This document shows, piece by piece, positions 38,263 through 59,990 of a stretch of 64,000 bases of DNA (positions are counted from its first letter, which is position 1; every line of letters starts with the position of its first letter). The stretch is from Candidatus Aenigmatarchaeota archaeon (GTDB lineage Archaea; Aenigmatarchaeota; Aenigmatarchaeia; CG10238-14; SCSR01), in NCBI GenBank assembly GCA_039000165.1, contig JAWBTW010000005.1, positions 981 through 64,980 on the forward strand, written 5' to 3'. The translations under genes were made by a program, and so were the position numbers. The notes beneath the pieces are model-generated. The model had not been told where the DNA came from. It worked only from the letters and a program-made list of their open reading frames with translations, and ran no database searches.

Positions 38263-38355
38263 TGGGGACGCTGGGATTTGAACCCAGGTTTTCTCGTGCA
38301 AAGCACTCTGAGCCTCCCAAGGGCCCGATCCTAGACCAAGCTAGACGACGTCCCC
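38263..38355 (-). tRNA. tRNA-Pro(UGG)-like with an ~18-nt insertion (putative non-canonical intron)
   Basis: Minus-strand read: GGGGACG-TC-GTCTAGCTTGGTCTAGGAT-C-GGGCC-CUUGGGA-GGCUC-[AGAGTGCTTTGCACGAGAAAAC]-CTGGG-TTCAAAT-CCCAG-CGTCCCC-A. Acceptor and T arms are canonical. The anticodon stem GGGCC/GGCUC with loop CUUGGGA gives anticodon UGG. 22 nt lie between the anticodon stem and the T stem, where 4-5 are expected. Confidence 0.55.
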
Positions 38356-38445: not shown

Positions 38446-38520
38446 TGGGAGGACCGGGATTTGAACCCGGGTTGCCGGCACCCCAAGCCGGATGCCTAGA
38501 CCAAGCTAGCAGATCCTCCC
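38446..38520 (-). tRNA. tRNA-Pro(GGG)
   Basis: Minus-strand read: GGGAGGA-TC-TGCTAGCTTGGTCTAGGCA-T-CCGGC-TTGGGGT-GCCGG-CAAC-CCGGG-TTCAAAT-CCCGG-TCCTCCC-A. Clean cloverleaf, anticodon GGG, 74 nt. Confidence 0.75.
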
Positions 38521-39896: not shown

Positions 39897-42098
39897 ATGA
39901 GAAAGCACCTAATTTTACTATTCTTTTTCTTCTTTCTACCAATCACTGTTTCAGCCCAAGATCTAGTAGCTTACTATTCCTTTGACGATTGCTCAGCCAA
40001 AGATTTATCTGGCTATAATAACAACGGAACAATTTATGGCGCAATCTGCACAGAAGGAAAAATAAATCAAGCTTTAAGCTTTGACGGTATAGACGATTAC
40101 ATAAATTGTGGAAATTCCTCTATTCTTAATCCTTCTTCGATAACAATCCTAGCCTGGATCTATCCAAAAGGCTGGGGAGAAAACGGAATGGGAAGAATAG
40201 TTACCAAATACTATTCCTACCAATTCTACGTTTATTCTGATGGCAACAGACTAAGCTTCTACTTTTGGAATTCCTCTAATTCAACCAATCAAGCCTGGTC
40301 GAACATAAACTCAACAAAACTAAACGAATGGCAGCATGTAGCAGTAACTTATGACGGAGAATACATTAAGTTTTACGTTAACGGCTTACTTTCAGGACAA
40401 ACAGCAATGAAAGCAGGAAGCTTGCAATCTTCTAACTCAAACCTAATTATAGGAAACAGAGAAAGCCTAGACAGAACTTTTAACGGCACAATAGACGAAG
40501 TAAAAATCTACAACAGAGCTTTAAGCAGCGAAGAAATCTACTCAGAATATCTAAAAACTGTTAAATACTTTCTTTCAGGTCAACTTAAAGACAAAAATGG
40601 TATTCCGCTTCAAGCAAATATTTCATTTTTAGACAAAGACACAAACGAAATAATTTTGATAAATCGAACAGATGAGAATGGAAGTTACCTTTTGTCAGCT
40701 TACTATGGAAGTTATGATATCTTGTATGAACTATCTGGCCAAAACTTGTGGATAAAAATAAAAGATTTTAATTTAAATCAGGATACAAGCGACATTTTAA
40801 ATTACATATCTTTTGAGTCAAATAAAATATCTTTTCAAGCCACCTTAGACAAAACAATTACTCTTGAGATATCAACTGACAAACCTCCTAGCAAAATTTT
40901 AATAAACGGAACCGAATTGGAAAAAGTTAATTCTTTGCAAGAATTGAAAAATAACAGCTGGTTTTATGAGTCATTTAAAAAAGTAATTCATTTACAAAAT
41001 TTTTTAGACTGTAATTTTCTTTGTAAACTTAAAAGATTTTCTTATGGTTTATGTAGAAATACCATGGAAGGCTTCCCGGAACCAGCTCCATTAGACCTTT
41101 CTGATGCAAGAAGAACTTTATGGAGATATTTTCCTTACTTATGGCACAGACATGAAGTTTTGGTTGAACTTTTCAAAAACTTATCAAATGCTCATCCAAA
41201 ATACGCTTCTTACGAATCTATAGGTAAATCGCATGAAGGTAGAGATATATTGATGTTTAAGATAGGAAATCCAGAAGGAGGAAAAGTTATGTGGGATGGG
41301 TGCATCCATGGTCCCGAAGATATAGGAAGCGAGATAATGTATATAATTGCAAAATGGCTTCTTGAAAGTGGGAACGAGACAGCTAATAGAATACTTCAAA
41401 GAAATTATATTCTTTTTATTCCTGTGGTGAATATGGATTCTTACGCAAGACAAAACAGGAATTTTAGCGCATGTCAATACGGAGTAGATTTGAACAGAAA
41501 CTTTGTAACAGGATGGCGCTCAAGAGCATGCACAATAGGAACGTGTACAAACGATACAGATTGCGAAAATAATTACGGCAGCTCTTATGTTTGTAGGAAT
41601 AACACTTGTGTTAATAACTATGATTATTCTGGAGAGTCTCCTGCAAGTGAGAATGAAACAAAAGCATTAAGATACGCTTTTCAAACTTATAGACCAGAGT
41701 TTTATGTTAACACTCATAGAGGTGGTTCTATTCTGTACTATTATTCTGGCAATAATATGTCGATTGTAAATTCCTTACTCCAGAGAATTAATGAATTAAG
41801 CTTACAAATGGGTGTAACACCTTATTCTGCCACTTCAGTTGGAGCAAATGGTATGGCTTTAGCCGATGCAAATTATTTTGGCGCTACTTCTTGGCTTTTC
41901 GAAATAGAAACTTGGGATGTTAATGTAACTTATGACGATATAGTAAATGTTTATTTTCCAAGAGTTTTACCAGTTTTTATAGCGATGTGCGAAGCTTCTG
42001 AAAAAGTTGTAGAAATTAATCCCTGCCTAAACGGAGAAATTTTAATTGACCAAAATACTTGTTTGCCATACTGGAAATGCTGTTGTTCTTTTTCTTAA
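39897..42098 (+). CDS. Secreted multidomain protein: signal peptide + LamG/ConA-like lectin domain + shared module + C-terminal M14 zinc carboxypeptidase domain
   Basis: 733 aa; signal peptide MRKHLILLFFFFFLPITVSAQDL. LamG_3-like block FDGIDDYINCGNS..ITILAWIYPKGW..WQHVAVTYDGEYIKFYVNG..FNGTIDEVKIYNRALSSEEI. M14 motifs SHEGRDILMFKIG and CIHGPEDIGSE (HxxE). Many N-x-S/T sequons. Confidence 0.7.
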   Translation: MRKHLILLFFFFFLPITVSAQDLVAYYSFDDCSAKDLSGYNNNGTIYGAICTEGKINQALSFDGIDDYINCGNSSILNPSSITILAWIYPKGWGENGMGRIVTKYYSYQFYVYSDGNRLSFYFWNSSNSTNQAWSNINSTKLNEWQHVAVTYDGEYIKFYVNGLLSGQTAMKAGSLQSSNSNLIIGNRESLDRTFNGTIDEVKIYNRALSSEEIYSEYLKTVKYFLSGQLKDKNGIPLQANISFLDKDTNEIILINRTDENGSYLLSAYYGSYDILYELSGQNLWIKIKDFNLNQDTSDILNYISFESNKISFQATLDKTITLEISTDKPPSKILINGTELEKVNSLQELKNNSWFYESFKKVIHLQNFLDCNFLCKLKRFSYGLCRNTMEGFPEPAPLDLSDARRTLWRYFPYLWHRHEVLVELFKNLSNAHPKYASYESIGKSHEGRDILMFKIGNPEGGKVMWDGCIHGPEDIGSEIMYIIAKWLLESGNETANRILQRNYILFIPVVNMDSYARQNRNFSACQYGVDLNRNFVTGWRSRACTIGTCTNDTDCENNYGSSYVCRNNTCVNNYDYSGESPASENETKALRYAFQTYRPEFYVNTHRGGSILYYYSGNNMSIVNSLLQRINELSLQMGVTPYSATSVGANGMALADANYFGATSWLFEIETWDVNVTYDDIVNVYFPRVLPVFIAMCEASEKVVEINPCLNGEILIDQNTCLPYWKCCCSFS

Positions 42099-42130
42099 AA
42101 TATTTGTTCAAAGAACACTAAGTTATATTT

Positions 42131-45100
42131 ATGAAAATATATTCTCAAATAATCGTTTTTCTTCTATTTATAGTTCTTTTATGTAGTCTCCCAACTTTCA
42201 TTAAAAAAGATGAAATAAATAACGAAAATTCTTCTTTTGAAGAAGAATGTACAGCTGTAATAGTTACAGGAACTCACGCAAAAGACGGAAGGGCTATAAT
42301 GATGAAGAATAGAGATTGGAGTGATACTCAGTACCAAAAACCTTGGTTTGTTAGTAGTTATGCTGGAGGAAATTACAGTTATATCTTAATGTCTGCTTAT
42401 ATGGGAATGAATGAAGTAGGATTAGCTATTATGAACACTCTTCAATCTTGTCCTGGTTTAAATGTTTGGCATTATAACATTCATGGAAATTACACTAATG
42501 ATAAATCAGTAGCTATGCAGTATGTTCTCTCTCATTTTTCAGATGTGGAAAAAGCAGTTATGTGGATAGTCGAAAATACTTACGGATTATGCGATTGTAT
42601 AGGAATAATAGGTCAAAATAGTAGCGTAGGTGCTTTTGTTTGGATAGATGGTGATAAGAAATACATAACTTGGGTCAATAATTCGCACGATGCTGCAGCA
42701 AACAGTTGGGTTCCAAACGGTGTTTACGGAACTAGAGGAGCAAGAGCAAAGCAACTTCTAGACCAAATCTACAATCAAAAAGGTTACATTTCTTGGGAGG
42801 ATGTAATTCAAGAAATAAGTAAAGATGAGTTTGATAGAGAAAAAACCAATAACAATTGTTACAGCTATAGTGATTGTATTAGCAGAGGAATAACAAGAGC
42901 AGCTATGGTAGCAGTTTCGGGAAATAGTAGCTATGAAGGCAGACTTAACATAATGTGGCTAACTTTTGGAGAAAATCCTACTATAGGTCTTTTCTTACCC
43001 TTAATGCCTGGGGTAATAGATTCCTCTTCAGACATACCAAGCATTTTTACTTCTGGAAACGGTTTAGGAGCTTTAGTAGAAGTTAAGAGGAACTATGCTA
43101 GAAATGGTTGTAGTTCTGAGCAATGGAACGGCACAAGAGTGAGAGAGATTCAGTCTTATTCTTTTTACGCTGAAAATTATACTTTTAAAAAATACGATGA
43201 ACTGATGAAGACAATTCCAAGTGGCTTATCTTATACTCAATTAAAAACGCTTCTTAAAAATTATATGAATGATTCGATAACTGTAGCTACCAACATATAT
43301 ATAGCAGAAAAAATACCTGAAGATTCTTTACCCAATTGTAGTGTCCTAAGTATAGATGAATCTTCTCCTTATGCTTATGCTTTAGACAATTCTATTTGGT
43401 ATAGTAATCTTTCTACGGGAAGCTTTGCTGTCAATATAGAGACTAACGATGATAAAGGAATAAGCAAAGTGAGCTTTCCGAGTACTACTTCCTCAGGAGG
43501 GGATGACACAATTCCTCCATATTCTTGGACCTATAGTTGGAATACCCAGAGTACTTATTCTGGAATAGCTACAGTTACAGTTTACGATACAGCACAGCAG
43601 ACTGGTACGTGTATTTTTAGCGTGATTAAGGATAGCGTAGCACCAACTACTACAGTAAATATCGAAGGAAACTATAACATTATTTTAAGTTGCGAGGATT
43701 CTGGCGTAGGTTGTAATGTCACTTATTATTGCATAGATACCGATAATTCCTGTAATCCTTCGAATGTATACTTAAATCCTATAACAACTTCTTGTACCGG
43801 TTGTTGCTATTTAAGATACCGTTCAGCAGATAAGGTTAACAATGTAGAAACTGTCAAATCTGTTTCTTTTGGCCATACTTGCGGTTGCTCAAGAGGCAAC
43901 CCTTCAGTTTTCATTATTCCATCATCTCAAAGTAACTTACCTGGGTATAAGTCAACTTACATAGTTTCAGTTAAAAGTAATGATAATGAAGCATGTGGAA
44001 TTTCTGTATTTAATTTGTCATTAGTCTTCTGCCAAGCTGGTATAAGTTGTAGCTTAATTAATAATACCTTAGCTATCTTGCCCGGAAATGCAATCAATAC
44101 TACATTAGAAATAACTTCAAGTCCTTCTGCTTCAGAAGGCAATTATATTTTTACTGTTAGAGCAACAAATTCTTTACTAAGCAATTATTTTGGAGAGGCT
44201 TCAGGAAGTTACATCGTTGTCTTAAAAAAACTAGTTTTAGAATATAAGTTCAGTGAAGGTCTGGGGTTAGTAGCTTACGATAACTCTGGATTTAATAATC
44301 ATGCAAATATTTTTGGGGCAAATTGGATAGAAGGCAAACACGACTTTGCTTTAAGTTTTGACGGAATAGACGACTATCTTGAAGTTTTGCAAGCCGATTC
44401 GATTAGTGGTTTTTCTTATGGTTTGTCTTTGAGCTTATGGGTTAAGTTTAACGAATTAAATAGAAGACAGGCGATTCTCAACAAATATGATACAAGAAGT
44501 AATCAAAGAGGTTGGTTCTTGGAGTACCAAAACCATTCTACTTATAGGGATGTTTTAGGATTTTTTGCTTCTTACAATGGAGTTAATTATAGTGAATGGT
44601 ACACTTCTTTCAAGCCTAATTTGGGAGAATGGTATCACTTAGCAGTTGTTTGGGAGCCAAATAAACTACCAAAGTTCTACGTGAATGGCGAACTTAAACA
44701 AACAATAAACAACAGAACAATTCCGCAAATTTTCAACAATACTCTAGCACCATTTCACATAGGAAAAAGTACTTATGCTACTGGAAGAGAATTTAACGGA
44801 ACGATAGATGAAGTTAAAATTTACAATTATGCTTTAACTGATAGCGAAATATTAGAAATATTTTCGAACGAAAGTAAAAATTATTTCAAAGGTTTCCTTA
44901 CCGATAAAGATGGTAGGCCATACCAAGGAATAGTATCAATCGACTCTCACGCAGGAAGCATAGAGAATGGAAATTATTTTCTCAGAATTGATTCAGGAAA
45001 TTATGATATTATATATTCTTTAGTCAACTTTCCTGTTCAGGGATTTTGGTTGAAACTTCTCAACTACTTAATCGATTCAGATTTGAATGATATAGTAAAT

Positions 45101-45304
45101 TATGTTGATAAGCAAGACAATAGAATTTCGTTCGTTGTCGAGTGTTTTAATTCTCAAAGTATTCAGGCTTACAGCCCTTCCAAACCAAACAAAGTAAAAG
45201 TTAATGGGGTTGAGATACCCTATGACGATTCTCTTTCTTCTATTCCTTCTTGGAAATACATTTCATCGAATAAAACAATCATTATTAAGTTCTTCTGTCA
45301 ATAA
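42131..45304 (+). CDS. Secreted multidomain protein: signal peptide + Ntn-hydrolase (peptidase C69-like) domain + LamG lectin-like domain + shared C-terminal module
   Basis: 1057 aa. After the signal peptide, EECTAVIVTGTHAKDGRAIMMKNRDW parallels the C69 N-terminal nucleophile motif (CTTILVGK..DGS...ARNED). LamG block FDGIDDYLEV..WYHLAVVWEP..FYVNGELK..FNGTIDEVKIYNYALTDSEILEIF. The C-terminal ~140 aa is homologous to the neighbouring proteins. Confidence 0.65.
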   Translation: MKIYSQIIVFLLFIVLLCSLPTFIKKDEINNENSSFEEECTAVIVTGTHAKDGRAIMMKNRDWSDTQYQKPWFVSSYAGGNYSYILMSAYMGMNEVGLAIMNTLQSCPGLNVWHYNIHGNYTNDKSVAMQYVLSHFSDVEKAVMWIVENTYGLCDCIGIIGQNSSVGAFVWIDGDKKYITWVNNSHDAAANSWVPNGVYGTRGARAKQLLDQIYNQKGYISWEDVIQEISKDEFDREKTNNNCYSYSDCISRGITRAAMVAVSGNSSYEGRLNIMWLTFGENPTIGLFLPLMPGVIDSSSDIPSIFTSGNGLGALVEVKRNYARNGCSSEQWNGTRVREIQSYSFYAENYTFKKYDELMKTIPSGLSYTQLKTLLKNYMNDSITVATNIYIAEKIPEDSLPNCSVLSIDESSPYAYALDNSIWYSNLSTGSFAVNIETNDDKGISKVSFPSTTSSGGDDTIPPYSWTYSWNTQSTYSGIATVTVYDTAQQTGTCIFSVIKDSVAPTTTVNIEGNYNIILSCEDSGVGCNVTYYCIDTDNSCNPSNVYLNPITTSCTGCCYLRYRSADKVNNVETVKSVSFGHTCGCSRGNPSVFIIPSSQSNLPGYKSTYIVSVKSNDNEACGISVFNLSLVFCQAGISCSLINNTLAILPGNAINTTLEITSSPSASEGNYIFTVRATNSLLSNYFGEASGSYIVVLKKLVLEYKFSEGLGLVAYDNSGFNNHANIFGANWIEGKHDFALSFDGIDDYLEVLQADSISGFSYGLSLSLWVKFNELNRRQAILNKYDTRSNQRGWFLEYQNHSTYRDVLGFFASYNGVNYSEWYTSFKPNLGEWYHLAVVWEPNKLPKFYVNGELKQTINNRTIPQIFNNTLAPFHIGKSTYATGREFNGTIDEVKIYNYALTDSEILEIFSNESKNYFKGFLTDKDGRPYQGIVSIDSHAGSIENGNYFLRIDSGNYDIIYSLVNFPVQGFWLKLLNYLIDSDLNDIVNYVDKQDNRISFVVECFNSQSIQAYSPSKPNKVKVNGVEIPYDDSLSSIPSWKYISSNKTIIIKFFCQ

Positions 45305-45311
45305 AATTATT

Positions 45312-47009
45312 ATGAATCAATTTTTTATCTTCCTTTTATCCGCTGCTCTTTTAATTTTACTCTTACCAACTTTCTATGACCTCCATAGTTCTAAAGTTCA
45401 GAGTTACTCTTTTCTTTCTAATTATGAATTAGCGCTTTTTAACTCCGAACTTTACCCTCTAGACTCAAATTTAATAACCGTTTGTTCTTCTGGGTGTAAC
45501 TTTACTTCTATTTACTCAGCTATAAATTACGCTAATATTACTCCAGGAGCAGATATGATTTATATAAAGGAAGGCGTATACACAGAAAACAACATCAAAT
45601 TATACAGCAACATCACAATCGTAGGCGATGGTATAGACAAAACAATTATAAGAAATAAGCTTTATAATTCTACAATAGGTCAAAGGGTTGATATTTTCAC
45701 TAGTAATGTTCCTTTAGAAAATGTTCGGATCGAAAATCTAACTGTTGATACTTTAGGTGTGCCAGACAACATGGGAAGTAGTGCCATAACTTTTCGAGGT
45801 AATGGCACGAACAAAAATATTGTTATTAGAAATGTTAAATCTATAAACGCTTTTGGAGCAGGTATAGCGATTCCAAACTTTGAAAATCTTGTAATAGAAA
45901 ATTGTATAATAAATAACACATGGACAGGAATAACAGTTGGTGGGGGGATAAATGCTTCGATTAAAAACAATATAATTGTTAATACTAGAGGGGATGGGAT
46001 TTTTCCACAAGTTAGACGTTCATCGAATCTCAGCGTTATAAAAGCTTTAATAGAAAATAATTATCTAGAGAATATCGGCGATACAGGAATAGATATAACT
46101 TCTGACTGTGATTTTAAACCTCATGAGGAAATTTATGTTGTTGGTAATAAGCTTAAAAATGCAAGTGTAAGAATTTCTTGTGCATTAAACATTACCTTAA
46201 TTAAGAACTTTATTAAATATGGAAGCATCGGTGTAGATGCTGGTGCAGGAAGACCCATAAACATAGCAATCGAAAATAATTCGATAGAAAGTTCAAAAAG
46301 AGGTATTGTTCTAGGTGGTGCTTTAAACGTAACCGTCAGGGACAACATTATTCATTTCTTTGCGTCTTCGGATTCTTCGCAAACAGGTATAAGTTCCGGA
46401 GTTTGGCAATCGTCGATATTACAAAATAATATTATTTTGAACCCACAAAACTATTGTATCGATTTTAATAATTGGCAGGTTGGCGGAAGCGGAAACACGT
46501 TAATAGAAAATAACACTCTAATCAACTGTGGTGATGTAGGGATTTATGATAATAATGTTAGTGTTGGAAAAGTAGTAATAAAAGGAAATAAGATACTAGA
46601 CTTTAAGAACTTATCAAGACACAGCATTCTTACAGAGAAAGAAAATAATGTATGGATCATAACTAACAACTGGATTTATAATAAAAGCATCTTTGCACCA
46701 AGTAGCATAATTAATGATAATGATTACTCTTATCCTGAACAGTTTTATTTTCCAATTTCTTTAAAAAGTAATAAGTTTATCTTCTCTTCAATACTTCAAG
46801 ATAGTAAAAATAAAATTTTAAGAATATATCTTGAAGAAATTGGATTTGGTTTGAACGAAGAAAACACGATAGAGATTTTCAGTCCAAAAAAACCTTCGAA
46901 AATTAAAATAAATAACCTTGTTGTAACATACGACGATTCTCTTTCTTTACTCCATTCTTGGAAATACGATTCTTCTAATAAAACAATAACTTTAAAGTTC
47001 TTTTCTTAA
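45312..47009 (+). CDS. Secreted right-handed parallel beta-helix repeat protein with shared C-terminal module
   Basis: ATG 45312 (MNQFFIFLLSAALLILLLP signal/anchor) preferred over the ORF-track start at 45204, which overlaps the previous gene. Repeated N-x-x-G-x-G-I/V beta-helix rungs (NAFGAGIAIPNFENLVIENCIINNTWTGITVGGGINASIKNNIIVNT). C-terminal ...KIKINNLVVTYDDSLSLLHSWKYDSSNKTITLKFF matches the neighbours. Confidence 0.6.
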   Translation: MNQFFIFLLSAALLILLLPTFYDLHSSKVQSYSFLSNYELALFNSELYPLDSNLITVCSSGCNFTSIYSAINYANITPGADMIYIKEGVYTENNIKLYSNITIVGDGIDKTIIRNKLYNSTIGQRVDIFTSNVPLENVRIENLTVDTLGVPDNMGSSAITFRGNGTNKNIVIRNVKSINAFGAGIAIPNFENLVIENCIINNTWTGITVGGGINASIKNNIIVNTRGDGIFPQVRRSSNLSVIKALIENNYLENIGDTGIDITSDCDFKPHEEIYVVGNKLKNASVRISCALNITLIKNFIKYGSIGVDAGAGRPINIAIENNSIESSKRGIVLGGALNVTVRDNIIHFFASSDSSQTGISSGVWQSSILQNNIILNPQNYCIDFNNWQVGGSGNTLIENNTLINCGDVGIYDNNVSVGKVVIKGNKILDFKNLSRHSILTEKENNVWIITNNWIYNKSIFAPSSIINDNDYSYPEQFYFPISLKSNKFIFSSILQDSKNKILRIYLEEIGFGLNEENTIEIFSPKKPSKIKINNLVVTYDDSLSLLHSWKYDSSNKTITLKFFS

Positions 47010-47121
47010 CCATAACGAAAAAAATTTAACTTATTCGACTTAGCGATTCGATAGCTTACTATTTCTAGCGAATATAGTCAAAGGTAAATGTTGATATTTA
47101 AAGGAGAATAAAAATATTTTA

Positions 47122-50100
47122 ATGATAAAATTCCCCGCTTTTTTATTAGCTTTTCTTATTACCTTAATTTTTTTCATTAGCGAGTCCGGTGCTTACGATT
47201 TTGCAATAATAAACACAACTAATGTACCAGAAGTAAACAACATATACGAAATGTTTAAAAATTTGGGTATAACTTACAAAAGTCTTTCACCTTCTCAAGT
47301 AACAAGCGAATCTGTTTTTAGCGATGTAAATGGTATAGTCTCTTTTATAGATGAAGGTTTTCCTGTGGCAAATTCCTCTGCAGTAATCGAGTTTGCAAAA
47401 AACCATGTTGTTATATGCCATGCTTACGACTTTGCAAATTATTATTTTCCTTCTTACTCAACTTCTTATCTTAAAGTCTCAGGAAGTACAGTAAATTACA
47501 CTAAGGACTGGGGAAATTTTAGAAAAAACGATAAAGCTCATTTTCAAAGAGAAGACGGCACTTTATACATTTTTCTATCTAGCTCTTTAGAGGGTGATCC
47601 AACAATTGAAAAAATTGCTCAATTCGATGCTACAAGAACTGCTTTCTTCCAAAAGAAAGGTTTAACAGAAAATACTGGCTTTTATGTTCTTGACCTTAAG
47701 GTTACGAGAAACGAAACGGAATGGTCCGGAATTTGGCATATTTTTCCTGCAGTCAAGCTAGTAAAAAATTTTTCGACCGGTAAATATGCGATGTGGATGA
47801 GTAATGGAGTATACTGGTGGGATATAAACTGGGTAAACACCTTTACAGATAGTTTAGCTACAAACAATCCAGAAATAGTTTCGAAAATTGTTATAGGTAA
47901 AAGTCTTGAAGGTAGAGATATTAGCGCTATTCTCATCGGAAAAGGCAATCGGTATGTAATAATTGATGGGACAATTCACGGTAATGAAAAATTGTCAACG
48001 TTTGCAAGCTTGAGATTTGCTGAAATGATTATCGAAAATTATAAAGCTAGAGGTTATTGGTACGATAGGTTACAAGAATTAAAGGTAATCATACTACCAA
48101 TTTTAAATCCTGACGGATTTGTCCATAATTGGAGACAAAATGCTAGAAGTTATCTTTATCCTTCAGATTATCAAAAATCTGGGTATGCTATGGCAGTGAA
48201 TGACCAATGGATTGCTCATGGCATACCAAATAGGGCAGAAGTTGAAGGTCATAAGTGTAATATTGTTCCTCAAGATTCTAATGTTAACGGAACAGTTTTA
48301 AGTGTTAATCAAACACATTTCAAAGTTGGTTTGACTTGGAAATCTGATGGCTCGCCAATAACCACACCTACAAACATTTCGTGGAGCTGCAATGCAACAT
48401 GTTGTAATTTAAACCGTGATTTTCCACCAGGTGCTGACGCTAGCGAACCAGAAACTAAAGCTTTAATAAACCTGGCAGCAAATTATACTCCTATAATTTA
48501 CATAAATGGACATGAGGGTGCTTACTACGAGTACAATAAATATTATTATGCTTCTAATTTAAAAGAGCCTTACATGGGTTTTGCAAAAAGAGCTACTAGT
48601 TTTGCTAAGACAATTTTTACAAACTTAAAACACTGGGGCTATTATACTGATGGAGGAACAAATTATTTCCTTGGAAGAGTGGATACTGCAGCATGCTGTA
48701 ATAATGTTTTTGCTGCTTATTATGTCACATGGAAACATAATGCTTCTTCTTATCTTGTAGAAACGATTGTGTGGAGTAGCACTTATGGGGCCAGACAACA
48801 GTTATACGGTTTTGATTATTATCTTTCCTTTTTTGACGGAGTTATTTCTCATCTAGATATCCTCAAAGAAAAAAATTTTGTTATTCATAGCACAGCAAAA
48901 ATTAAGTCGTTCAATTATGATAACCAATTAATCGTTATGTTAGATACTTCAGAAGCCATTTTACCTACACAAACTGTCATCTTTCTTGGGAATTATGGAA
49001 AACCTAATTCTGTAAAAATTGACGGGATAGAAAAATCTGAAGGTGATGGTTGGGTTTATTATACTGATAGCAATAACATAACCATTACAGGAGCTTCAAA
49101 CTCAATTGTGCTTGGTTGGGAGCCAACTTACACTGCTACCTTTTATCAAACAGGAATTCCTTCTGGTACACCATGGGGTGTTACTGTTGCTAGTAATAGG
49201 TATACTTCTACAGCAAGTAGTTTAACTGTATCTGGGCTGACAGGAACTGTTTCTTACAGCTATGATGCCATTGTTCCTGATACACCAGGAACTAGATACT
49301 CTTGTGTTTCAGATTGTTCTGGCTACGTTAGCCAAGAGTATAATACAACTTCAGCAAATTACATTACTCAATATTTCTTGGCAATGAGCGTAAATCCCGT
49401 AGGAAGTGGTAATGTAGCCCCAGGTAACGGATGGTATAACTCTAGTATGTCAATTACCATTAGTGCAAGTCCAAATCCCGGTTATGGCTTCTCTTTTTGG
49501 AATGGTTCTGGATCAGGCAGTTATACTGGCATAGAAAATCCTGCGTCGATAACGATGAATTCACCAATAACAGAAATTGCTAATTTTGTTCCTTTTTCCG
49601 ATGTAATCGGTTACTGGAAGTTTGACGAAGGCTCTGGTTATGAAGCAAAAGATTCCTCTGTTTATAAAAATAATGGTATAGTTAATGCATCATGGTCCTT
49701 AACTAATTGTCTTTCAATTTATTGCCTTAATTTTGACGGTATTGATGATGTTATCAACTGTTCGAATTCTTCAATTTTAAACCCTAGCCCAACAGGAAGC
49801 ATAACAGTAGAAGCCTGGATTTATCCAAGATCATACGGTGGAAACGGCTTAGGAAGAGTTGTTTCTAAAGAAACAGGAACTACAGCAAACCCTTATGCCT
49901 TAGAGTTAAGAAACACAACCGAAGCTTATACAAACGGCTTAGTCTTTTGCATAGGAAACGGAACTTCAGAAACTTGCACTATAGGTTCAGCTTGCAACAA
50001 CATAATTGCTCTAAACACATGGCAGCATGTTGCAGGAAGATATAATCGCACGCACTTAAGCGTTTTCGTAAACGGTGTTGAAAAGTGCACTCAAAGCTTA

Positions 50101-50706
50101 CTTGATTACAACTTCCAACCAGCTCCAACAAACCTTTTGATAGGAAACAACCCCACTAACTTAAGACAATTTAACGGCACCATAGACGAAGTTAGAATCT
50201 GGAACAGAGCTTTAAGCAACGAAGAAATAAAAAGTGAGTACGAAAAATTCAAGAAAATTTTTGGGCAACTGAAAGATAAGAATGGTATGGCTCTTCATGC
50301 TAACATCACAATTTACCAAGAAGATACAGAAAATATAGTATCTTTAGTCAAGACCGACGATTTTGGTAATTATCTTCTTCATGTATTGACAGGGAAGTAC
50401 GATGTCAAGTTTAGCTTTTTAGACTTTTCCTTTTCTGATTATTGGGTTAAATTTTTATCTCTCAATATATCTTCTCACCTTTTCAATCTTTTAAACCAAA
50501 TAGGTAAAACAAACAACAAAATCTCCTTCAATTTAAATATCAGTAATGACCAATTGATTGAAATTTACAGTCAAAGTAAGCCAACAAATGTTATGGCTAA
50601 CGACAAAAAACTGACTGAAGTTTTCTCTTTTTATAACTTGCAACCAAACACTTGGTTTTATGATTCGAGTGGAAAAAAACTTTATTTGTTTGTTTTAATT
50701 TCTTAA
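47122..50706 (+). CDS. Secreted multidomain protein: signal peptide + M14 zinc carboxypeptidase domain + LamG lectin-like domain + shared C-terminal module
   Basis: 1194 aa. M14 motifs IGKSLEGRDISAILIG and GTIHGNEKLST (HxxE) plus ILPILNPDGF. LamG block FDGIDDVINCSNSSILNP..ITVEAWIYPRSYGGNGLGRVVSKE..WQHVAGRYNRTHLSVFVNG..FNGTIDEVRIWNRALSNEEI. The C-terminal module is paralogous to 39897-42098 and 42131-45304. Confidence 0.7.
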   Translation: MIKFPAFLLAFLITLIFFISESGAYDFAIINTTNVPEVNNIYEMFKNLGITYKSLSPSQVTSESVFSDVNGIVSFIDEGFPVANSSAVIEFAKNHVVICHAYDFANYYFPSYSTSYLKVSGSTVNYTKDWGNFRKNDKAHFQREDGTLYIFLSSSLEGDPTIEKIAQFDATRTAFFQKKGLTENTGFYVLDLKVTRNETEWSGIWHIFPAVKLVKNFSTGKYAMWMSNGVYWWDINWVNTFTDSLATNNPEIVSKIVIGKSLEGRDISAILIGKGNRYVIIDGTIHGNEKLSTFASLRFAEMIIENYKARGYWYDRLQELKVIILPILNPDGFVHNWRQNARSYLYPSDYQKSGYAMAVNDQWIAHGIPNRAEVEGHKCNIVPQDSNVNGTVLSVNQTHFKVGLTWKSDGSPITTPTNISWSCNATCCNLNRDFPPGADASEPETKALINLAANYTPIIYINGHEGAYYEYNKYYYASNLKEPYMGFAKRATSFAKTIFTNLKHWGYYTDGGTNYFLGRVDTAACCNNVFAAYYVTWKHNASSYLVETIVWSSTYGARQQLYGFDYYLSFFDGVISHLDILKEKNFVIHSTAKIKSFNYDNQLIVMLDTSEAILPTQTVIFLGNYGKPNSVKIDGIEKSEGDGWVYYTDSNNITITGASNSIVLGWEPTYTATFYQTGIPSGTPWGVTVASNRYTSTASSLTVSGLTGTVSYSYDAIVPDTPGTRYSCVSDCSGYVSQEYNTTSANYITQYFLAMSVNPVGSGNVAPGNGWYNSSMSITISASPNPGYGFSFWNGSGSGSYTGIENPASITMNSPITEIANFVPFSDVIGYWKFDEGSGYEAKDSSVYKNNGIVNASWSLTNCLSIYCLNFDGIDDVINCSNSSILNPSPTGSITVEAWIYPRSYGGNGLGRVVSKETGTTANPYALELRNTTEAYTNGLVFCIGNGTSETCTIGSACNNIIALNTWQHVAGRYNRTHLSVFVNGVEKCTQSLLDYNFQPAPTNLLIGNNPTNLRQFNGTIDEVRIWNRALSNEEIKSEYEKFKKIFGQLKDKNGMALHANITIYQEDTENIVSLVKTDDFGNYLLHVLTGKYDVKFSFLDFSFSDYWVKFLSLNISSHLFNLLNQIGKTNNKISFNLNISNDQLIEIYSQSKPTNVMANDKKLTEVFSFYNLQPNTWFYDSSGKKLYLFVLIS

Positions 50707-50715: not shown

Positions 50716-51279
50716 TCAACAAATTTTTTCTCCTAAAATCTCAAAAATACTTTCATTCACAAAAACTGGTACTTCATAATCAACTCTTGCAGCTATAGCT
50801 AAGGCATCGCTTGGTCTAGAATCTAAGCCAAGAATCAAATTACCTTGTTTTAAAAAAAGTTTTGAAATGTAAGTTATTCTCCAGCTGCAATTTTCTTCTG
50901 GTAAGCAAGTCTCGTTTCTTGCTTCTGTTATTTTTACCATCAAAACTTGAATCCCAAAGTTTTTTAGCATATCTTTTATTAAATCATGAGTATAAGGTCT
51001 TGGTCCTAAAATTCTTTCCATTCCTCTTCCTATGGAAATTGCTTGGTTTTTATCAACTACCATACTTATTTGTTTGCAATCGCTTGTTAGCCTAACGATT
51101 CCTTCATCTTCTTTTATTTCAACAGAGACAGAAGAAGGGGCAAAACCTATTGTTGAGAGTTGGGGCAAAGCAAAAAAAGTTGAGAAGAAATTGCTTAGCA
51201 AATACCAAAAGAATAAAATAGCCAATATCAAAATTAAAAAAATCGTTGCGAATTTGTAAAAATTCCTTTCTTTTTTCAT
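50716..51279 (-). CDS. Membrane-anchored bifunctional nuclease (BFN/DUF151) domain protein
   Basis: 187 aa. N-terminal TM (ATIFLILILAILFFWYLL), then ISMVVDKNQAISIGRGMERILGPRPYTHDLIKDMLKNFGIQVLMVKI...RPSDALAIAARVDYEVPVFVNE, typical of the DUF151 nuclease family. Confidence 0.6.
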   Translation of the reverse strand: MKKERNFYKFATIFLILILAILFFWYLLSNFFSTFFALPQLSTIGFAPSSVSVEIKEDEGIVRLTSDCKQISMVVDKNQAISIGRGMERILGPRPYTHDLIKDMLKNFGIQVLMVKITEARNETCLPEENCSWRITYISKLFLKQGNLILGLDSRPSDALAIAARVDYEVPVFVNESIFEILGEKIC

Positions 51280-51302: not shown

Positions 51303-52271
51303 TTAAATCTCTAAGATGCAATCTTCCAAATTCTTATCGTTCCTTAATCTTACAAAGGAAGGAGCTCTTAGTTGTAAATCTTTTGTTATCTCCATAAACT
51401 TTACTTCACATATTAGCTTGGGCTTAACCCAGTTTACTATTAAATCAGAAGGAAGTTTTGGTTTTTCTTCTAAAGGGCATTCGTCTATTCTTAATTTTTT
51501 CAACTCTTCTGTAAGCTCAGCATATCCTTTTTCATCTAGGCCTGTTCCACATCTTCCTACATACTTTAATTTTCCTTGATGGAAACAAGCTAAGACCAAA
51601 GCTCCGAAGTATTTTTCACGCCAACCTTCACCTTTTGTATATCCTACAATAATACAATCTAAAGTTTTTAAGAACTTTATTTTCAACCAATTTTTACTTC
51701 TTTTTCCTATTTCATACTTTGAATCTAGGCGTTTTGCCATTATCCCTTCCAAACCCTTTTCCTTGGCTTTCTCAAAAAGATCTTTTCCTCTGCCAATTAT
51801 ATAGCTTGAAAGCATTATTCTTTGATTTTCTTTAACAATACTCTCCAGAATCCTTTTTCTTTCAATCAAAGGCTTATCAACTAAATCTTTTCCGTCTAAA
51901 TGTAAAATATCAAAAACAACGTAAGTAGCTGGCATGATTTCAGATAAAAGCTTAATTCTTAGTTTTTCTCCAACATGCTCTCTTGTCTGCAAAGCAAAAA
52001 AATCTGGCTTACCTTTTTTAAAGACAACTATTTCCCCGTCTAGCACAACTCTTTTTGCGTTTATGTTTTCATAAATTTTAAGAAGTTCAGGATAGTTTGA
52101 CTGGAAGAACTTAAGCCTTCTGTTGAGAAACCTCACTTCCTTTTTTTCTTTATCTATATAAGCTATAGTTCTTGTACCATCTAGCTTAATCTCAAAACAG
52201 AATTCGTCAGAATCAAAAGGTTCTGATATATAAGCAAGCATTGGTTTTATTATTTGGTCGAAAAGTGTCAT
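51303..52271 (-). CDS. ATP-dependent DNA ligase, minimal LigD-type ligase domain (adenylation + OB)
   Basis: 322 aa. Motif I EIKLDGTR (KxDGxR), motif III FDILHLDG, motif IV DGEIVV, motif V EGIMAKR, motif VI WLKIK. Confidence 0.8.
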   Translation of the reverse strand: MTLFDQIIKPMLAYISEPFDSDEFCFEIKLDGTRTIAYIDKEKKEVRFLNRRLKFFQSNYPELLKIYENINAKRVVLDGEIVVFKKGKPDFFALQTREHVGEKLRIKLLSEIMPATYVVFDILHLDGKDLVDKPLIERKRILESIVKENQRIMLSSYIIGRGKDLFEKAKEKGLEGIMAKRLDSKYEIGKRSKNWLKIKFLKTLDCIIVGYTKGEGWREKYFGALVLACFHQGKLKYVGRCGTGLDEKGYAELTEELKKLRIDECPLEEKPKLPSDLIVNWVKPKLICEVKFMEITKDLQLRAPSFVRLRNDKNLEDCILEI

Positions 52272-52358
52272 AATTAGATTTTATAAAAGAAATAATTTCT
52301 TTTCTTCTTTTTAAATCTCAAAACTCTGGAAAATTGGATTGGGTAAATTATCCAAAGT

Positions 52359-53165
52359 TCATCTACTATTCACTTCTTTCTTTTCCTCTTTCTTCTTTTT
52401 CACAGTTTCTATACTAGCTTTTAAAGCTTCTACAAGCTCCTTGGTTTCAGGAATTTTTTCCTCCTTAACTTCAATTTCCTTTCCTTCTGCTCTTGCTTTT
52501 ATCAGTTTCATAAGTTCTTCTGTGTAATTATCCTTAAACTTCGAAGCATCAAATTCTGATTCAGTTAACTTTGAAATTAAGGCTTGGGCTAGCTTAAGTT
52601 CCTCTTCTCTTACAGTTACTAAATTCTTAAGCTCGCTTATCTCTTCTATGTCCTTTATTTCTCCCAAGTAATGTAGAATGTGCATTACCAAACCCTTTTT
52701 AAAAGCTCTTATCGCAACCAAATATTCTTTATTTCTTATGACGACCTTCCCTATTGCAACTTTGTTCGTAATTCTTAGGGCTTCGACAAAAAGAGAGTAA
52801 GCTTTTATTCCTGTTTCTTCAGGGGCAATGTAATAGCTTTTTTCCAAGAATATCGGGTCTATTTGAGAAGCATCTACAAATTCTTGAATTTCTATAGCTT
52901 TAGTTGTTTTAAGCCTGAGCTTTTCCAGGTCTTCCTTTTTAATTATTACATACTGATCCTTAGCTATTTTGTATCCTTTTTCGATATCCTCATATGCAAC
53001 TTCTTTCTCGCATTTTGGACACCATCTCTTATAAACTAAAGGAGTTCCGCATTCTTTATGTAAATTATTAAAAGAAATTACTCTACTTTCTGTTGCCTTA
53101 TAAATCTTTATCGGAATGTTTACCAAGCCAAAAGATATGCTTCCTGAAAATATTGCTCTTGTCAT
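52359..53165 (-). CDS. ku: Ku protein (bacterial/archaeal single-domain Ku)
   Basis: 268 aa. MTRAIFSGSISFGLVNIPIKIYKATE is the hallmark Ku N-terminus; acidic/lysine-rich C-tail. Confidence 0.85.
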   Translation of the reverse strand: MTRAIFSGSISFGLVNIPIKIYKATESRVISFNNLHKECGTPLVYKRWCPKCEKEVAYEDIEKGYKIAKDQYVIIKKEDLEKLRLKTTKAIEIQEFVDASQIDPIFLEKSYYIAPEETGIKAYSLFVEALRITNKVAIGKVVIRNKEYLVAIRAFKKGLVMHILHYLGEIKDIEEISELKNLVTVREEELKLAQALISKLTESEFDASKFKDNYTEELMKLIKARAEGKEIEVKEEKIPETKELVEALKASIETVKKKKEEKKEVNSR

Positions 53166-56051: not shown

Positions 56052-56783
56052 TCACTTATAAACTACATTTAGTATTTTTACGGTTAAAAAATCAGCTCCT
56101 GAGTACAAAGTATAAAGAATTTGGTAACTTGCATAAGTTGTATTCAAGTATACTATAGCTTCAGCTTTCCCAGAGTTTTTCCCAGGGTCTAAAGCTTGAG
56201 AATAGCCATAACCATAAGAGCTTTCTTCTCTATCGTCTATAAAAATAGAAGTATCTGAAGGAATTAAGCTCGCATCACTCGGCTTAAAATAAATGAGTTT
56301 AATGAGTTTGCTTGTGTTTATTAACTCTGGAGCTTCTTTGCTACCTTTTTTTTCAATCGCTACTCTTAAGAATTCGTTTTCTAAAATGATTTCTTGGTTT
56401 CCGTCGTTATCCAGGTCATATTCCCTAACTATAGCGTTTTTCCCTGGAATAAAAATTATATTTTCATTTTTTAGAAAAACTGGCTCAAGTCGATAGTTCT
56501 TAGGCGAATAATAAAAATCGATGCAGTTAGTTTTTTCGTTTATTTTATATTCTCCGTCAGTAACCTTAATGGAAAGAGTCCTAAGACTACCCAAACCTTC
56601 TGTTGCAACTTCTTCTATACTTTGTGACATTAGCCTTAAGTTTTCCCAAGCTTCGTTAATCACTAAAGATTCTCTTGCTTTCTCTATGGTAGGCATCCCT
56701 ATCAAAAGAACTAAAGTTATTCCAGAAACTACTATCATAATAACCATTACATAAGCTACCAATGGGCTTATACCTTTTAACAT
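56052..56783 (-). CDS. Archaeal type IV pilin-like protein (class III signal peptide)
   Basis: 243 aa. N-terminus MLKG|ISPLVAYVMVIMIVVSGITLVL, the KG-ISPLVA class III signal peptide / archaellin-like N-terminal domain. Confidence 0.6.
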   Translation of the reverse strand: MLKGISPLVAYVMVIMIVVSGITLVLLIGMPTIEKARESLVINEAWENLRLMSQSIEEVATEGLGSLRTLSIKVTDGEYKINEKTNCIDFYYSPKNYRLEPVFLKNENIIFIPGKNAIVREYDLDNDGNQEIILENEFLRVAIEKKGSKEAPELINTSKLIKLIYFKPSDASLIPSDTSIFIDDREESSYGYGYSQALDPGKNSGKAEAIVYLNTTYASYQILYTLYSGADFLTVKILNVVYK

Positions 56784-57403
56784 CTTCTTACCTCCACTAT
56801 CGGCTTGTTTTCTGGAGTTATGTCAGAATATTCCACGCAGATTTTACTTGTCCCTGGACCTAAAATTTCATCCCCCCTTATAACAACTTTATCATTTCTT
56901 AAAACCATTGTAATGAAGTTTAACTGCGTCGGATAAACAGAGAATGGTTGGGAAGGTAAGCCGTACCTTTCTACAGAATAAATCTTTTTCTCGATTTGAT
57001 TGCAGGTTCCATTAGTAAAAGCTATAATGAAGGTTGTCCCTTCAACTTTTTGTTTGATTTCAATTTTGTAACTTTCTGAGCCATCTATTAAAAAAGAAAC
57101 ATAACCTAAGTCTTGTTTTTTTCCCGAATAGATTACACTTGCCAGAATTCCTTTTTCAAATTCTTCCTCATCATAAGTGCAAACATAAAAGTGAGTCAAA
57201 TTGGTAGGATAACCTATCAAGTAATAGCTTTCGCTGGCGTTGCCAGTTGCTTCTCCAATTCTATAAAAGTCGTTGCTTTTATTTTCCCCCAAGTGATACG
57301 CGAACCTAAACTTTACATAGCTTATTTTACTTTGAGCTTTGAGAGAGGTTAAGAGAAAACAAAATACTAGGATCAAGGAGGCAAGGAAAATTACTTTTTT
57401 CAT
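56777..57403 (-). CDS. Hypothetical secreted protein (classical signal peptide)
   Basis: 208 aa; MKKVIFLASLILVFCFLLTSLKAQS. Confidence 0.4.
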   Translation of the reverse strand: MKKVIFLASLILVFCFLLTSLKAQSKISYVKFRFAYHLGENKSNDFYRIGEATGNASESYYLIGYPTNLTHFYVCTYDEEEFEKGILASVIYSGKKQDLGYVSFLIDGSESYKIEIKQKVEGTTFIIAFTNGTCNQIEKKIYSVERYGLPSQPFSVYPTQLNFITMVLRNDKVVIRGDEILGPGTSKICVEYSDITPENKPIVEVRRC

Positions 57404-57427
57404 AATTAATCTTTTGATTTTTAATAA

Positions 57428-58021
57428 TTAAACCAGTTTATAGGTTTTTAGAATCTTGTCTCTAAGCTTAAGTTTTTGGTTTTCAAGTCTTAAATCAATA
57501 AATAATAAAAGTTTGTTTTCTTCAGTTTCAACTTTCAGCAGGATTTCTTCGCTTTCTTTAGAGTAAGGTGTTTCATAGAAAATTTTTAGTGTATAGTTTG
57601 CGTTTTGCTCAGGAATTGTGAAGTTAGCACTTAATTCTTTTCCGTCTTCTATATTTTTAAATTCAACGAGCGAATCATTAACACTTAAGTTAAGGAAAAG
57701 AATTTCACTTCCTAAAAGATTTTTTATACTCAAGTTAAGCTTGCTATTCTCTAGTTTTGCTGTTAAAAGGAATGATTTGAATTCCAAACTTCTTCTCTTG
57801 AAAGAGTTTCTTGAAAATGTGGCAAAAGCTTCTAGGTTTTTGGTTAGATTTTCTTTTTCATGAATCGAAAATTCAATACTTCTTATCATTTCTTCCTTAA
57901 CATTTTCAAATTCAAGAAAAAGGCTCTCATCTTTAAATTGAAAGAAGCTTATGCTTGCTTTTATCAACGCAAGGATTATTATAAAAATTATTGCAACTAT
58001 CAAGAAAGTTTGGCCTTTCAC
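57428..58021 (-). CDS. Hypothetical protein with class III (prepilin-like) signal peptide: candidate minor pilin
   Basis: 197 aa; MKG|QTFLIVAIIFIIILALI. Confidence 0.4.
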   Translation of the reverse strand: MKGQTFLIVAIIFIIILALIKASISFFQFKDESLFLEFENVKEEMIRSIEFSIHEKENLTKNLEAFATFSRNSFKRRSLEFKSFLLTAKLENSKLNLSIKNLLGSEILFLNLSVNDSLVEFKNIEDGKELSANFTIPEQNANYTLKIFYETPYSKESEEILLKVETEENKLLLFIDLRLENQKLKLRDKILKTYKLV

Positions 58022-58380
58022 TTTCTTACCACCAAAACAATTTCTAAAGGTTGAAATCTCCCAATATCTCCTGCTAAAAGATAATTTATCCTTGATTTCT
58101 CTTCTTCAAAACTAGCTATTTTGCAAGTCTCAGAACATATAAAAACTTCATAATTCAGTTGATAAGGAAGCAACTTTACAAGCTTGTTTTTTATGCTTTC
58201 GGTATCATTTTCTAAGGCATACTTTCTTAGCTCGTTGCTTTCGTCTAAAGCTTTTAGTGCTTTTAGGCAAATTTCCTTAATGTTAATTTCTGTTTTTTGT
58301 TCTTGCGGAACAAATGCTAAAATTAAAAAAATGACTATTAAAAAAGTTGCGATTGCTGCTTCTGCAATGTATAAAGCCAT
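58018..58380 (-). CDS. Hypothetical N-terminally anchored small protein
   Basis: 120 aa; MALYIAEAAIATFLIVIFLILAF. 4-nt overlap with the downstream gene. Confidence 0.35.
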   Translation of the reverse strand: MALYIAEAAIATFLIVIFLILAFVPQEQKTEINIKEICLKALKALDESNELRKYALENDTESIKNKLVKLLPYQLNYEVFICSETCKIASFEEEKSRINYLLAGDIGRFQPLEIVLVVRK

Positions 58381-59015
58381 TATTTTTCACTTACCTCTAA
58401 GTAAAAATTATAATTAAGATTTTTAATCAAATCCTCGTAGCTAATGTTTCTAAGCTGTTTTAACTTACCTAAAGATAGCATTTCCAATTCCTGTAAAGGG
58501 AAGATTTCTATTTTAAACCCTGAATTTTCCTCGAAAGCGACATTATGGCTTACTTCCTTCACATCTTTTTCTCCTGAAAAATAGACAAAGAAATTTTTTG
58601 GCTGGAAAGCTGAGAAGTTGGACTTTAAACATAAATCAGCCCTTTTTAAGTAGCCTTCTTCGCAGAAAGTTTTATTATATAAGCTAAACTCAACTTCTTG
58701 ATTTTCCTCATAAACCCTTACTGTCGAGAACCAGGCTCTTTTTTCACATGTTTCGTCAAAAATTATAGTTAAATTTACAACAGCATTAACCCTTTCATTT
58801 CCGCTGATCTCTACAATTTTAACGGGTAGCTTGTAAAGTTTTGTGGTTAGGTTTAATTTTAAAGGAATAAACAAATTTCTTGCAACTATTTTTAGGTTAG
58901 TATTTTGATTGTATTGGAGATGTCTTACTAAGTAATTTAAAACAAAACTTAAGGCTATACCTATAACTATTATAATAATCCCAACAGCTATTACAAAATC
59001 AGCTTGGATTGGCAT
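58380..59015 (-). CDS. Hypothetical N-terminally anchored protein
   Basis: 211 aa; MPIQADFVIAVGIIIIVIGIALSF. Confidence 0.35.
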   Translation of the reverse strand: MPIQADFVIAVGIIIIVIGIALSFVLNYLVRHLQYNQNTNLKIVARNLFIPLKLNLTTKLYKLPVKIVEISGNERVNAVVNLTIIFDETCEKRAWFSTVRVYEENQEVEFSLYNKTFCEEGYLKRADLCLKSNFSAFQPKNFFVYFSGEKDVKEVSHNVAFEENSGFKIEIFPLQELEMLSLGKLKQLRNISYEDLIKNLNYNFYLEVSEK

Positions 59016-59018
59016 TAA

Positions 59019-59501: not shown

Positions 59502-59558
59502 TTAAAATTGGCATGCGTAAGATAATATTTATTAACTCTCAAAAATAAAAATAAAAGT

Positions 59559-59990
59559 ATGAGAAAAGGAATATCTCCACTTGTGGCCGCAGTTCTTTTG
59601 ATAGCAGCTACTATGGGAATAGCAACAATCCTAACATACTGGGCATCCACTTTTATCAAATCTTCCTTGCCAGAAGTTGCCAATCAAAGCTATAGTCCTT
59701 GCCTATACGCAGATTTTCAGATTTATTCTTGCTCTTACACAAATTCAACTCCAACAAAAGGAAACATAACTTTAATTCTTAAGAATGTTATGGACGTTGA
59801 GCTAAGGAATCTGACAGCTACTGTATTTTATCCAACTGGCACAATAAAAAACTACAATCTTAAACCAGATAATGTTTTACCGAAAAATATTTACAAAGGC
59901 TTTACAATAGAAGATGTTGATTTGCCTTACACTAAGGTTGTCATAACTACTCATTGTCCGTATGTAGAAGAAGAGTCTCCATGCCAGTAA
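59559..59990 (+). CDS. Archaeal type IV pilin (class III signal peptide)
   Basis: 143 aa; MRKG|ISPLVAAVLLIAATMGIATILTYW. Confidence 0.6.
   Translation: MRKGISPLVAAVLLIAATMGIATILTYWASTFIKSSLPEVANQSYSPCLYADFQIYSCSYTNSTPTKGNITLILKNVMDVELRNLTATVFYPTGTIKNYNLKPDNVLPKNIYKGFTIEDVDLPYTKVVITTHCPYVEEESPCQ

Follow-up and report, generated by a model that had tools for sequence, protein, structure and literature searches.

A position-independent two-domain beta cassette on secreted hydrolases of Aenigmatarchaeota and its possible role in targeting

A stretch of 64,000 nucleotides from a Candidatus Aenigmatarchaeota archaeon (contig JAWBTW010000005.1, positions 981 to 64,980 of the forward strand; assembly GCA_039000165.1) carries four consecutive plus-strand genes, here called A, B, C and D, that together fill the interval 39897-50706. 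We refer to the whole stretch as the window, and all coordinates are positions within it. Each of the four proteins has a hydrophobic N-terminal segment, and they have in common all or part of a sequence of about 150 residues. This sequence is a non-catalytic extracellular cassette made of two beta domains in a fixed order, D1 and then D2. The original prediction for this locus described a C-terminal module of about 140 aa on four secreted paralogs and suggested a function in sorting or cell-surface attachment. The evidence presented below confirms much of the module but not its C-terminal character, and it suggests that the cassette may be a targeting module of secreted hydrolases.

Gene A (39897-42098) is an open reading frame (ORF) of 733 aa whose product begins with a classical signal peptide (ending ..VSA by direct reading) and a LamG domain at aa 63-214 (40083-40538, directly 5' of the cassette; PF13385 E=1e-33). 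The cassette is internal in this protein, with D1, a CarboxypepD_reg-like sandwich, at aa 226-305 (40572-40811; D1 profile E=9e-26) and D2, a small beta domain, at aa 307-367 (40815-40997; D2 profile E=1.3e-21). A cysteine motif, a Peptidase_M14 domain at aa 424-620 and a C-terminal cysteine motif complete the protein. The product of gene D (47122-50706; 1194 aa) also has a classical signal peptide (ending ..SGA), followed by Peptidase_M14 at aa 239-515, an InlB B-repeat-like region at aa 755-823 and LamG at aa 889-1037 (49786-50232; PF13385 E=3e-27). Its cassette is C-terminal, with D1 at aa 1045-1127 (50254-50502; E=3.7e-30) and D2 at aa 1130-1191 (50509-50694; E=4.8e-27).

Gene B (42131-45304; 1057 aa) encodes a hydrophobic N-terminus, a hydrolase resembling the C45 and N-terminal nucleophile (Ntn) enzymes, an Ig-like/OmpL47-like region, LamG at aa 745-907 (44363-44851; PF13385 E=5e-26), and a C-terminal cassette. 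The latter comprises D1 at aa 918-992 (44882-45106; E=1e-20) and a D2 variant ending ...PYDDSLSSIPSWKY..KTIIIKFF at aa 994-1055 (45110-45295; E=1.2e-22). The match for the N-terminal hydrolase is weak (NCBIfam C45_proenzyme, aa 35-143, E=5e-9). At the start of the gene (42131-42300), the hydrophobic segment has no obvious signal-peptidase site and is followed by 'EEEC-TAVIVTGTHAKDGR', near which the C45/Ntn-type match begins. Ntn-type autoprocessing at a cysteine near position 40, if it occurs, would release the enzyme from its N-terminal hydrophobic anchor. Gene C (45312-47009; 565 aa) is read from the ATG at 45312 because the 97.7%-identical protein MEM5794634.1 has the same start. It encodes a hydrophobic N-terminus and a pectin-lyase-fold beta-helix (Pfam matches Beta_helix, Pect-lyase_RHGA_epim and Pectinesterase). 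Only D2 follows (46851-47003; aa 515-565 counted from 45309; positions 14-66 of the 66 in the D2 profile; E=7e-16), and the D1 profile has no match in this protein.

The peptides quoted in the original prediction are present where it had placed them, and the similarity among the tails is substantial. When the tails alone are compared by BLASTP, A aligns with D (36% identity, 142 aa, 91.7 bits) and with B (32%, 149 aa, 70.9 bits), B aligns with D (31%, 144 aa, 66.2 bits), and B aligns with C (57%, 47 aa, 60.1 bits). A profile built from the four tails recovers these four ORFs alone from all six-frame ORFs of the window, with the next match at E=0.079. Building such a profile and searching with it had been proposed as a check on the module, and when 1.84 billion cluster representatives (clusters at 50% identity) were scanned exhaustively with HMMER, 550 proteins passed E<=1e-3, of which 175 also passed E<=1e-10 and 16 passed E<=1e-30. 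Because the profile recovers 550 representatives, with more than 100 aligned over the whole module, a low-complexity coincidence is excluded.

The extent of the shared sequence is not the same in all four proteins. A module of about 140 aa is indeed found in A, B and D (66-92 bits), but C lacks the first half, and separate D1 and D2 profiles detect D2 only, such that just the last 50-60 residues or so are common to all. For C, an alignment that reaches as far upstream as aa 471 has weak support and is likely over-extended, and the residues concerned have a pLDDT (predicted local distance difference test) of 56-63 in a fragment model. In A, B and D, by contrast, the paralogous block begins upstream of the cassette and takes in each of the LamG domains listed above, for a total of about 370 aa (A and D are 40% identical over 377 aa, E=1e-67). 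A second D2 inside protein D (aa 603-666, '..GKPNSVKIDG...GWVYYTDSNNITI') was considered from BLASTP matches at E=0.005-0.008 in a five-sequence database. The D2 profile does not match there at E<=0.01, and we do not claim it. Repeats among the paralogs at the DNA level consist only of short pieces in the 'FNGTIDEV.IYNRAL' segment of LamG. Therefore, the paralogy is old, and recent gene conversion between the tails is ruled out.

The first domain belongs to known territory. D1 (about 85 aa) falls within the CarboxypepD_reg/transthyretin-like sandwich superfamily, as the original prediction had proposed from its glycine and tyrosine motifs, and is a divergent member of it. Conservation was measured on a 50-sequence alignment of the family, and the census of relatives used below covers 104 cluster representatives that carry the whole module. 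PF13620 (CarboxypepD_reg) matches 46 of the 50 members at E<=1 (best 2.5e-8), covering module positions 3-59 only. The motifs of that family, a glycine in strand A, T-D-x-x-G-x-Y and G-x-Y-D, are largely retained (G5 98%, T35 92%, G39 98%, Y41 100%, Y50 94%, D51 94%). Searching PDB sequences with the profile identifies carboxypeptidase M and, with E=7e-4, the N-terminal domain of the lambda tail fibre, both at the same positions as PF13620. An AlphaFold2 model of the whole module, made for the D copy, is all-beta (pLDDT 88; predicted template modelling score 0.83). In Foldseek, about 80 of its residues align with transthyretin-like (prealbumin-like) domains of carboxypeptidase D (5aq0_B, TMt 0.65; 1qmu), carboxypeptidase M (1uwy), CnaB and 5-hydroxyisourate hydrolases, with probabilities of 0.99-1.0 and E values of only 3e-3 to 6e-2.

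The likeness to the M14B carboxypeptidases D and M thus includes a beta-sandwich of about 80 residues that is a non-catalytic accessory of secreted hydrolases. There are also differences. The single window copy scored, the D tail, reaches 21.3 bits (E=3.6e-4) rather than the PF13620 gathering score of 32.3 bits, its match covers only the first 57 or so residues, and D1 is always followed by D2. In metazoan carboxypeptidases D and M the sandwich directly follows M14, which is not the case for D1 in A and D. PF13620 was not detected at E<=0.1 when A, B and D were scanned at full length, and the module region of the four proteins gave no Pfam or NCBIfam family at that threshold.

The second domain, D2 (about 65 aa), is small and all-beta. 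It has the consensus ..NK.SF......Q.IQ.YS..KP..V.INGT...EV.SLS.L..NTWFYDS..KKLY and matches nothing in Pfam, NCBIfam or PDB sequences. The original prediction had anticipated a conserved second part, and its presence means that the module is not merely a known CarboxypepD_reg domain. A model of the second half alone is of moderate quality (pLDDT 72; 56-63 for the first 30 residues and 73-83 for the rest). The low values fit those first strands belonging to D1. Compared with the PDB by Foldseek, this half-module model finds nothing (best E=0.13). D2 is not a duplicate of D1 (hhalign probability 0.2%). Because it is present without D1 in C and in two genes of a metagenomic array described below (profile positions 82/90-150), D2 can be considered an autonomous unit. 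Both D2 and its obligate pairing with D1 appear to be undescribed, given that neither is found in Pfam-A, NCBIfam, the PDB or the literature searched.

The top Foldseek matches of the complete module (122-137 columns) are Bacteroides two-domain lipoproteins, namely DUF3823 (4yok, 4fxt), BF0290 (3hn5) and DUF4876 (4q1z). In these, too, a transthyretin-like domain at the N-terminus precedes another beta domain. However, the E values are only 3e-3 to 5e-2 and the root-mean-square deviation is 14-15 A. Neither the second domains nor their orientation can be superposed, and the sequences are not similar.

The cassette is free in its position. Internal copies account for 63 of the 104 relatives, another 23 have the cassette no more than 60 residues from the N-terminus and count as N-terminal, and 18 have it at the C-terminus. 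In protein A, where the module occupies aa 223-372 of 733, it lies upstream of M14, so the module is not C-terminal in all four window proteins as had been proposed. Such freedom of position rules out a C-terminal sorting signal and makes covalent anchoring implausible. Accordingly, we give almost no credence to a sorting or secretion signal analogous to PGF-CTERM/archaeosortase or to the C-terminal domain of the type IX secretion system (T9SS), even though the cassette is C-terminal in B, C (D2 only) and D, and faint Por_Secre_tail matches occur in three of 50 members (best E=0.0035). These matches lie far below the curated cut-off of the T9SS domain (TIGR04183), and the window copies do not match at all. 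In addition, the T9SS is a system of Bacteroidota. The motif, hydrophobic helix and basic tail of a PGF-CTERM signal are likewise missing. As the original prediction had noted, no C-terminal transmembrane segment or PGF motif is visible when the four window C-termini are read directly (...CCCSFS, ...KFFCQ, ...LKFFS and ...LFVLIS), and a hydrophobic C-terminal window is found in none of the 104 relatives. A hydrophobic N-terminus is present in 78 of the 97 relatives that start with Met.

With the separate profiles, 114 proteins have exactly one D1-D2 unit each, and the order is constant. About 35 further profile matches lack D2 and consist of D1-like repeats in long arrays, and two more are D2 alone. 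Among 67 full-length relatives, the partners are for the most part LamG, GH5 and further glycan-active domains, with counts of Laminin_G_3 (15), GH5 cellulase (13), Beta_helix (5), GHL15 (3) and polysaccharide lyase (3), with single cases of GH99, GH43, GH39, GH130, GH32 and pectinesterase. N-glycosylation sequons are denser in the module (3.3 per 100 aa) than in whole proteins (1.8), with 228 observed in cassettes versus 153 expected from shuffles, and an NGT at position 117 is found in 29 of 50 sequences. Three residues, Y41, P111 and W135, are invariant across the 50 sequences, which are 28-45% identical.

Given these features, we favor the hypothesis that D1-D2 is a targeting cassette on secreted hydrolases of Aenigmatarchaeota, similar to the carbohydrate-binding modules (CBMs) and 'X' modules of bacterial carbohydrate-active enzymes, and we assign this reading a probability of roughly 0.5. 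One copy each would have been shuffled onto many secreted proteins and placed behind the signal peptide, in between domains or at the C-terminal end. The cassette is probably N-glycosylated and might then serve in binding or presentation. With LamG as its companion, it would keep a hydrolase on a polymeric target, which could be a substrate glycan or a glycan of the host's or the cell's own envelope. It would act neither in directing export nor in covalent anchoring. The proposal builds on the homology, two-domain anatomy, position independence, partner domains and missing C-terminal anchor observed here, and we hold its functional part with moderate confidence.

CBM and 'X' modules are also non-catalytic beta-sandwiches that occupy variable positions on GH5, GH43, GH39, polysaccharide lyase and pectin-lyase-fold enzymes, near LamG. 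The cassette is indeed fused to carbohydrate-active catalytic domains, both in the partner census and in the metagenomic array. In the window, it lies beside M14 peptidases, an Ntn/C45-like hydrolase and a pectin-lyase-fold protein. Unlike those modules, the cassette matches no Pfam CBM family, its binding is something that we infer, and the family is archaeal and lineage-specific as far as organism labels show. Some observations weigh against our proposal. Among the Pfam matches that 50 modules give at E<=1, there is no CBM family. Comparison of orthologues shows somewhat faster divergence in the cassette than in the catalytic domains: between B and P0010, D1 and D2 are 46-52% identical versus 85% for the hydrolase, and between A and P0002 the values are 77% versus 81-86%. 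Finally, the taxonomic restriction rests on a labelled minority of matches. Of 30 family clusters looked up, seven have an organism label, and six of these are Aenigmatarchaeota/Aenigmarchaeota. The seventh is the 80%-identical relative of A (MEM2144126.1), which is on an 8.8-kb contig of a metagenome-assembled genome (MAG) labelled Jordarchaeaceae. The near-identical relatives of C (MEM5794634.1) and D (MEM5794635.1, 97.4% identical) are both from a Ca. Aenigmatarchaeota MAG. As far as such labels show, the cassette family is specific to Aenigmatarchaeota, a lineage of DPANN archaea.

Faster divergence of the cassette also fits a passive spacer, in which D1-D2 would be an inert glycosylated stalk that keeps catalytic and lectin domains apart and itself binds no ligand. 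Sandwiches of the CarboxypepD_reg and Ig-like types often act as spacers, the cassette is rich in sequons, and PT/S-rich linkers or Cys-rich mini-domains often come after it (in 14 and 30 of 104 relatives, respectively). Spacers, however, usually vary in repeat number, and a single D1-D2 in the same order in every one of the 114 proteins is not what would be expected of them. Nor would they be expected to keep Y41, P111 and W135 strictly across 50 sequences, or to keep D2 alone at protein ends. Because of the LamG and glycan-active partners, the single copy, the fixed order and the invariant aromatic residues, we prefer a specific binding or presentation role, and a generic spacer seems unlikely.

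Cysteine-rich sequences also lie near the cassette. In protein A, one motif is split into two halves around M14, the first ('CNFLCKLKRFSYGLC'; 41010-41054, aa 372-386) directly after D2 and the second ('CLNGEILIDQNTCLPYWKCCC'; 42024-42086, aa 710-730) at the end of the protein. The relatives P0002 and P0004 have the same split motif, and in P0004 the halves are separated by a different region of about 300 aa that is not M14. In P0033 (261 aa), the two halves adjoin without an insert. From its CxxxC...GxC...CCC spacing, the motif looks like a small disulfide-rich domain into which an enzyme domain has been inserted. Of 154 proteins examined, 12 (among them P0006, P0008, P0011, P0016, P0017 and P0019) have another recurrent Cys-rich mini-module, 'C.DGT.YG.CS..KP.YCDNG.LI..CS.CGCP.G..C', downstream of the cassette, and none of the window proteins has it.

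Genomic context was examined at five loci, since linkage of the module to S-layer or pilus genes had been put forward as a check on an attachment function. On a 783-kb metagenomic contig (L002, positions 29-22469; JGI 3300031862), nine plus-strand genes for secreted proteins of the GH5/LamG type stand in tandem, interrupted only by a two-gene minus-strand insert that includes an AbiEii gene. Six of the nine carry D1-D2 and two carry D2 only. At three other loci (L004-L006) there is a single cassette gene among housekeeping genes, with no pilus or S-layer neighbors. When the window is added to these four, no consistent linkage with S-layer or pilus genes emerges. Across the loci there is a tendency toward enzyme arrays but no consistent link to envelope assembly.

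The absence of such linkage bears on the possibility that D1-D2 keeps enzymes that lack an anchor on the cell by binding its own S-layer or envelope glycans non-covalently, much as SLH and CWB2 domains do in bacteria. A C-terminal transmembrane or sortase-type signal occurs in none of the 104 relatives even though most have export signals, and there is a single cassette per protein, both of which speak for such retention. Anchoring domains such as SLH occur at either end of proteins. Furthermore, the putative self-cleavage of B near Cys 40 would detach its hydrophobic segment, in which case another retention device would be useful. However, the cassette is internal in 61% of relatives, its genes are not linked to S-layer or envelope genes at the five loci, and Pfam and NCBIfam scans reveal no similarity to known anchoring domains. 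Nothing observed distinguishes the cell's own surface from a substrate as the target. We consider retention on the cell possible but rather unlikely.

The array also recalls cellulosomal dockerins, in which one non-catalytic handle is attached to many catalytic heads that are encoded in enzyme gene arrays. By analogy, D1-D2 might plug diverse enzymes onto a scaffold or giant surface protein for multi-enzyme display. The single copy in 114 of 114 proteins, the many catalytic heads and the large tandem arrays are all consistent with this idea, and the D1 part of the profile also matches giant proteins with 9-22 D1-like repeats. Yet these giant proteins match generic CarboxypepD_reg features only. 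Moreover, dockerins are small calcium-binding helical modules, whereas D1-D2 is all-beta, matches neither Dockerin nor cohesin, and has no known cohesin-like partner. For these reasons, a dockerin-type handle is distinctly improbable. A broader version, in which D1-D2 is a lineage-specific handle by which a scaffold, an S-layer or a structure of the host-cell surface is loaded with glycosidases and peptidases, with D2 as a new fold family that mediates the contact, is in our view still quite unlikely. If true, archaea would have an all-beta display system that works in the manner of cohesin-dockerin or SLH. What chiefly separates the targeting cassette that we favor from its rivals is the partner that the cassette would contact.

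In other DPANN archaea (Nanohaloarchaeota and Mia14, a member of Micrarchaeota), secreted lectin proteins of the LamG/ConA-like type have been proposed to mediate attachment to hosts and are seen as probable factors of host or glycan interaction (PMC7443923, PMC5498576). Like those proteins, the window products are secreted, sequon-rich, strain-specific LamG proteins in a DPANN genome. Some LamG genes of Mia14 lie near type IV pilus loci (PMC5498576), and a parallel is found in the window, where a pilus-like locus lies 5.3 kb from the LamG enzyme cluster. The differences are that the D1-D2 cassette does not feature in either report (PMC7443923, PMC5498576) and that the window LamG proteins also bear hydrolase domains. 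An outward-facing LamG domain is likewise carried by the haloarchaeal fimbrial subunit TafC (PMC11821415), which the LamG parts of the window proteins resemble. Because this match is confined to the LamG region and is far below the cut-off (about 33-51 bits versus 410), the window proteins are not members of the TafC family.

The remainder of the window is consistent with a small archaeal genome and includes tRNA-Pro, FEN1, Ku, an ATP-dependent ligase, CTP synthase, a glycogen cluster and the pilus-like locus. The enzyme cluster is flanked on one side by a gene for a HerA-like ATPase and two tRNA-Pro genes, and on the other by genes for a nuclease, a ligase and Ku. The tRNA-Pro(UGG) gene (38263-38355, minus strand) is 93 nt long, which suggests that it has an intron, and tRNA-Pro(GGG) (38446-38520) is 75 nt long. 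The genes for Ku (PF02735, E=1e-51) and the ATP-dependent DNA ligase form a pair (51303-53165, minus strand) that adjoins the gene for a bifunctional-nuclease-domain protein (50716-51279). The pair is a repair module of the non-homologous end joining type in a small DPANN genome. The type IV pilus-like locus (56052-63757, mostly minus strand), downstream of the enzyme cluster, encodes pilin-like DUF7289 and DUF7266 proteins, a Pilin_N protein (59954-60463, plus strand), two T2SSF membrane proteins and one T2SSE/PilB3-like ATPase. A glycogen/alpha-glucan cluster (10011-23200) encodes two GH57 proteins, a GDE_C amylo-1,6-glucosidase-like protein, three GT4/GT5 glycogen-synthase-like proteins and a phosphoglucomutase.

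Cultures of Aenigmatarchaeota and other DPANN archaea are lacking or very few. These organisms are believed to live in attachment to hosts, and the way in which their extracellular proteins reach the right target is an unsolved question. Accessory modules on secreted enzymes are a familiar theme, of which the cassette is a variant from a little-known lineage of archaea. D1 belongs to a well-known superfamily as a divergent member, and D2 and the D1-D2 unit appear to be the undescribed part. The cassette marks a coherent set of secreted hydrolases that comprises more than 100 clusters at 50% identity, with several per genome and sometimes arrays of 8-9 genes. In NCBI, the annotation of these proteins reads only 'LamG-like' (as with the 'LamG-like jellyroll fold domain-containing protein' related to D), 'pectinesterase family' (as with the 'pectinesterase family protein' related to C), 'cellulase family' or hypothetical. 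Defining D2 and the D1-D2 unit should therefore improve annotation and offer a handle on what these enzymes bind. If the cassette is only a spacer, this amounts to routine domain bookkeeping, but its importance would rise sharply if it is a docking or host-attachment device.

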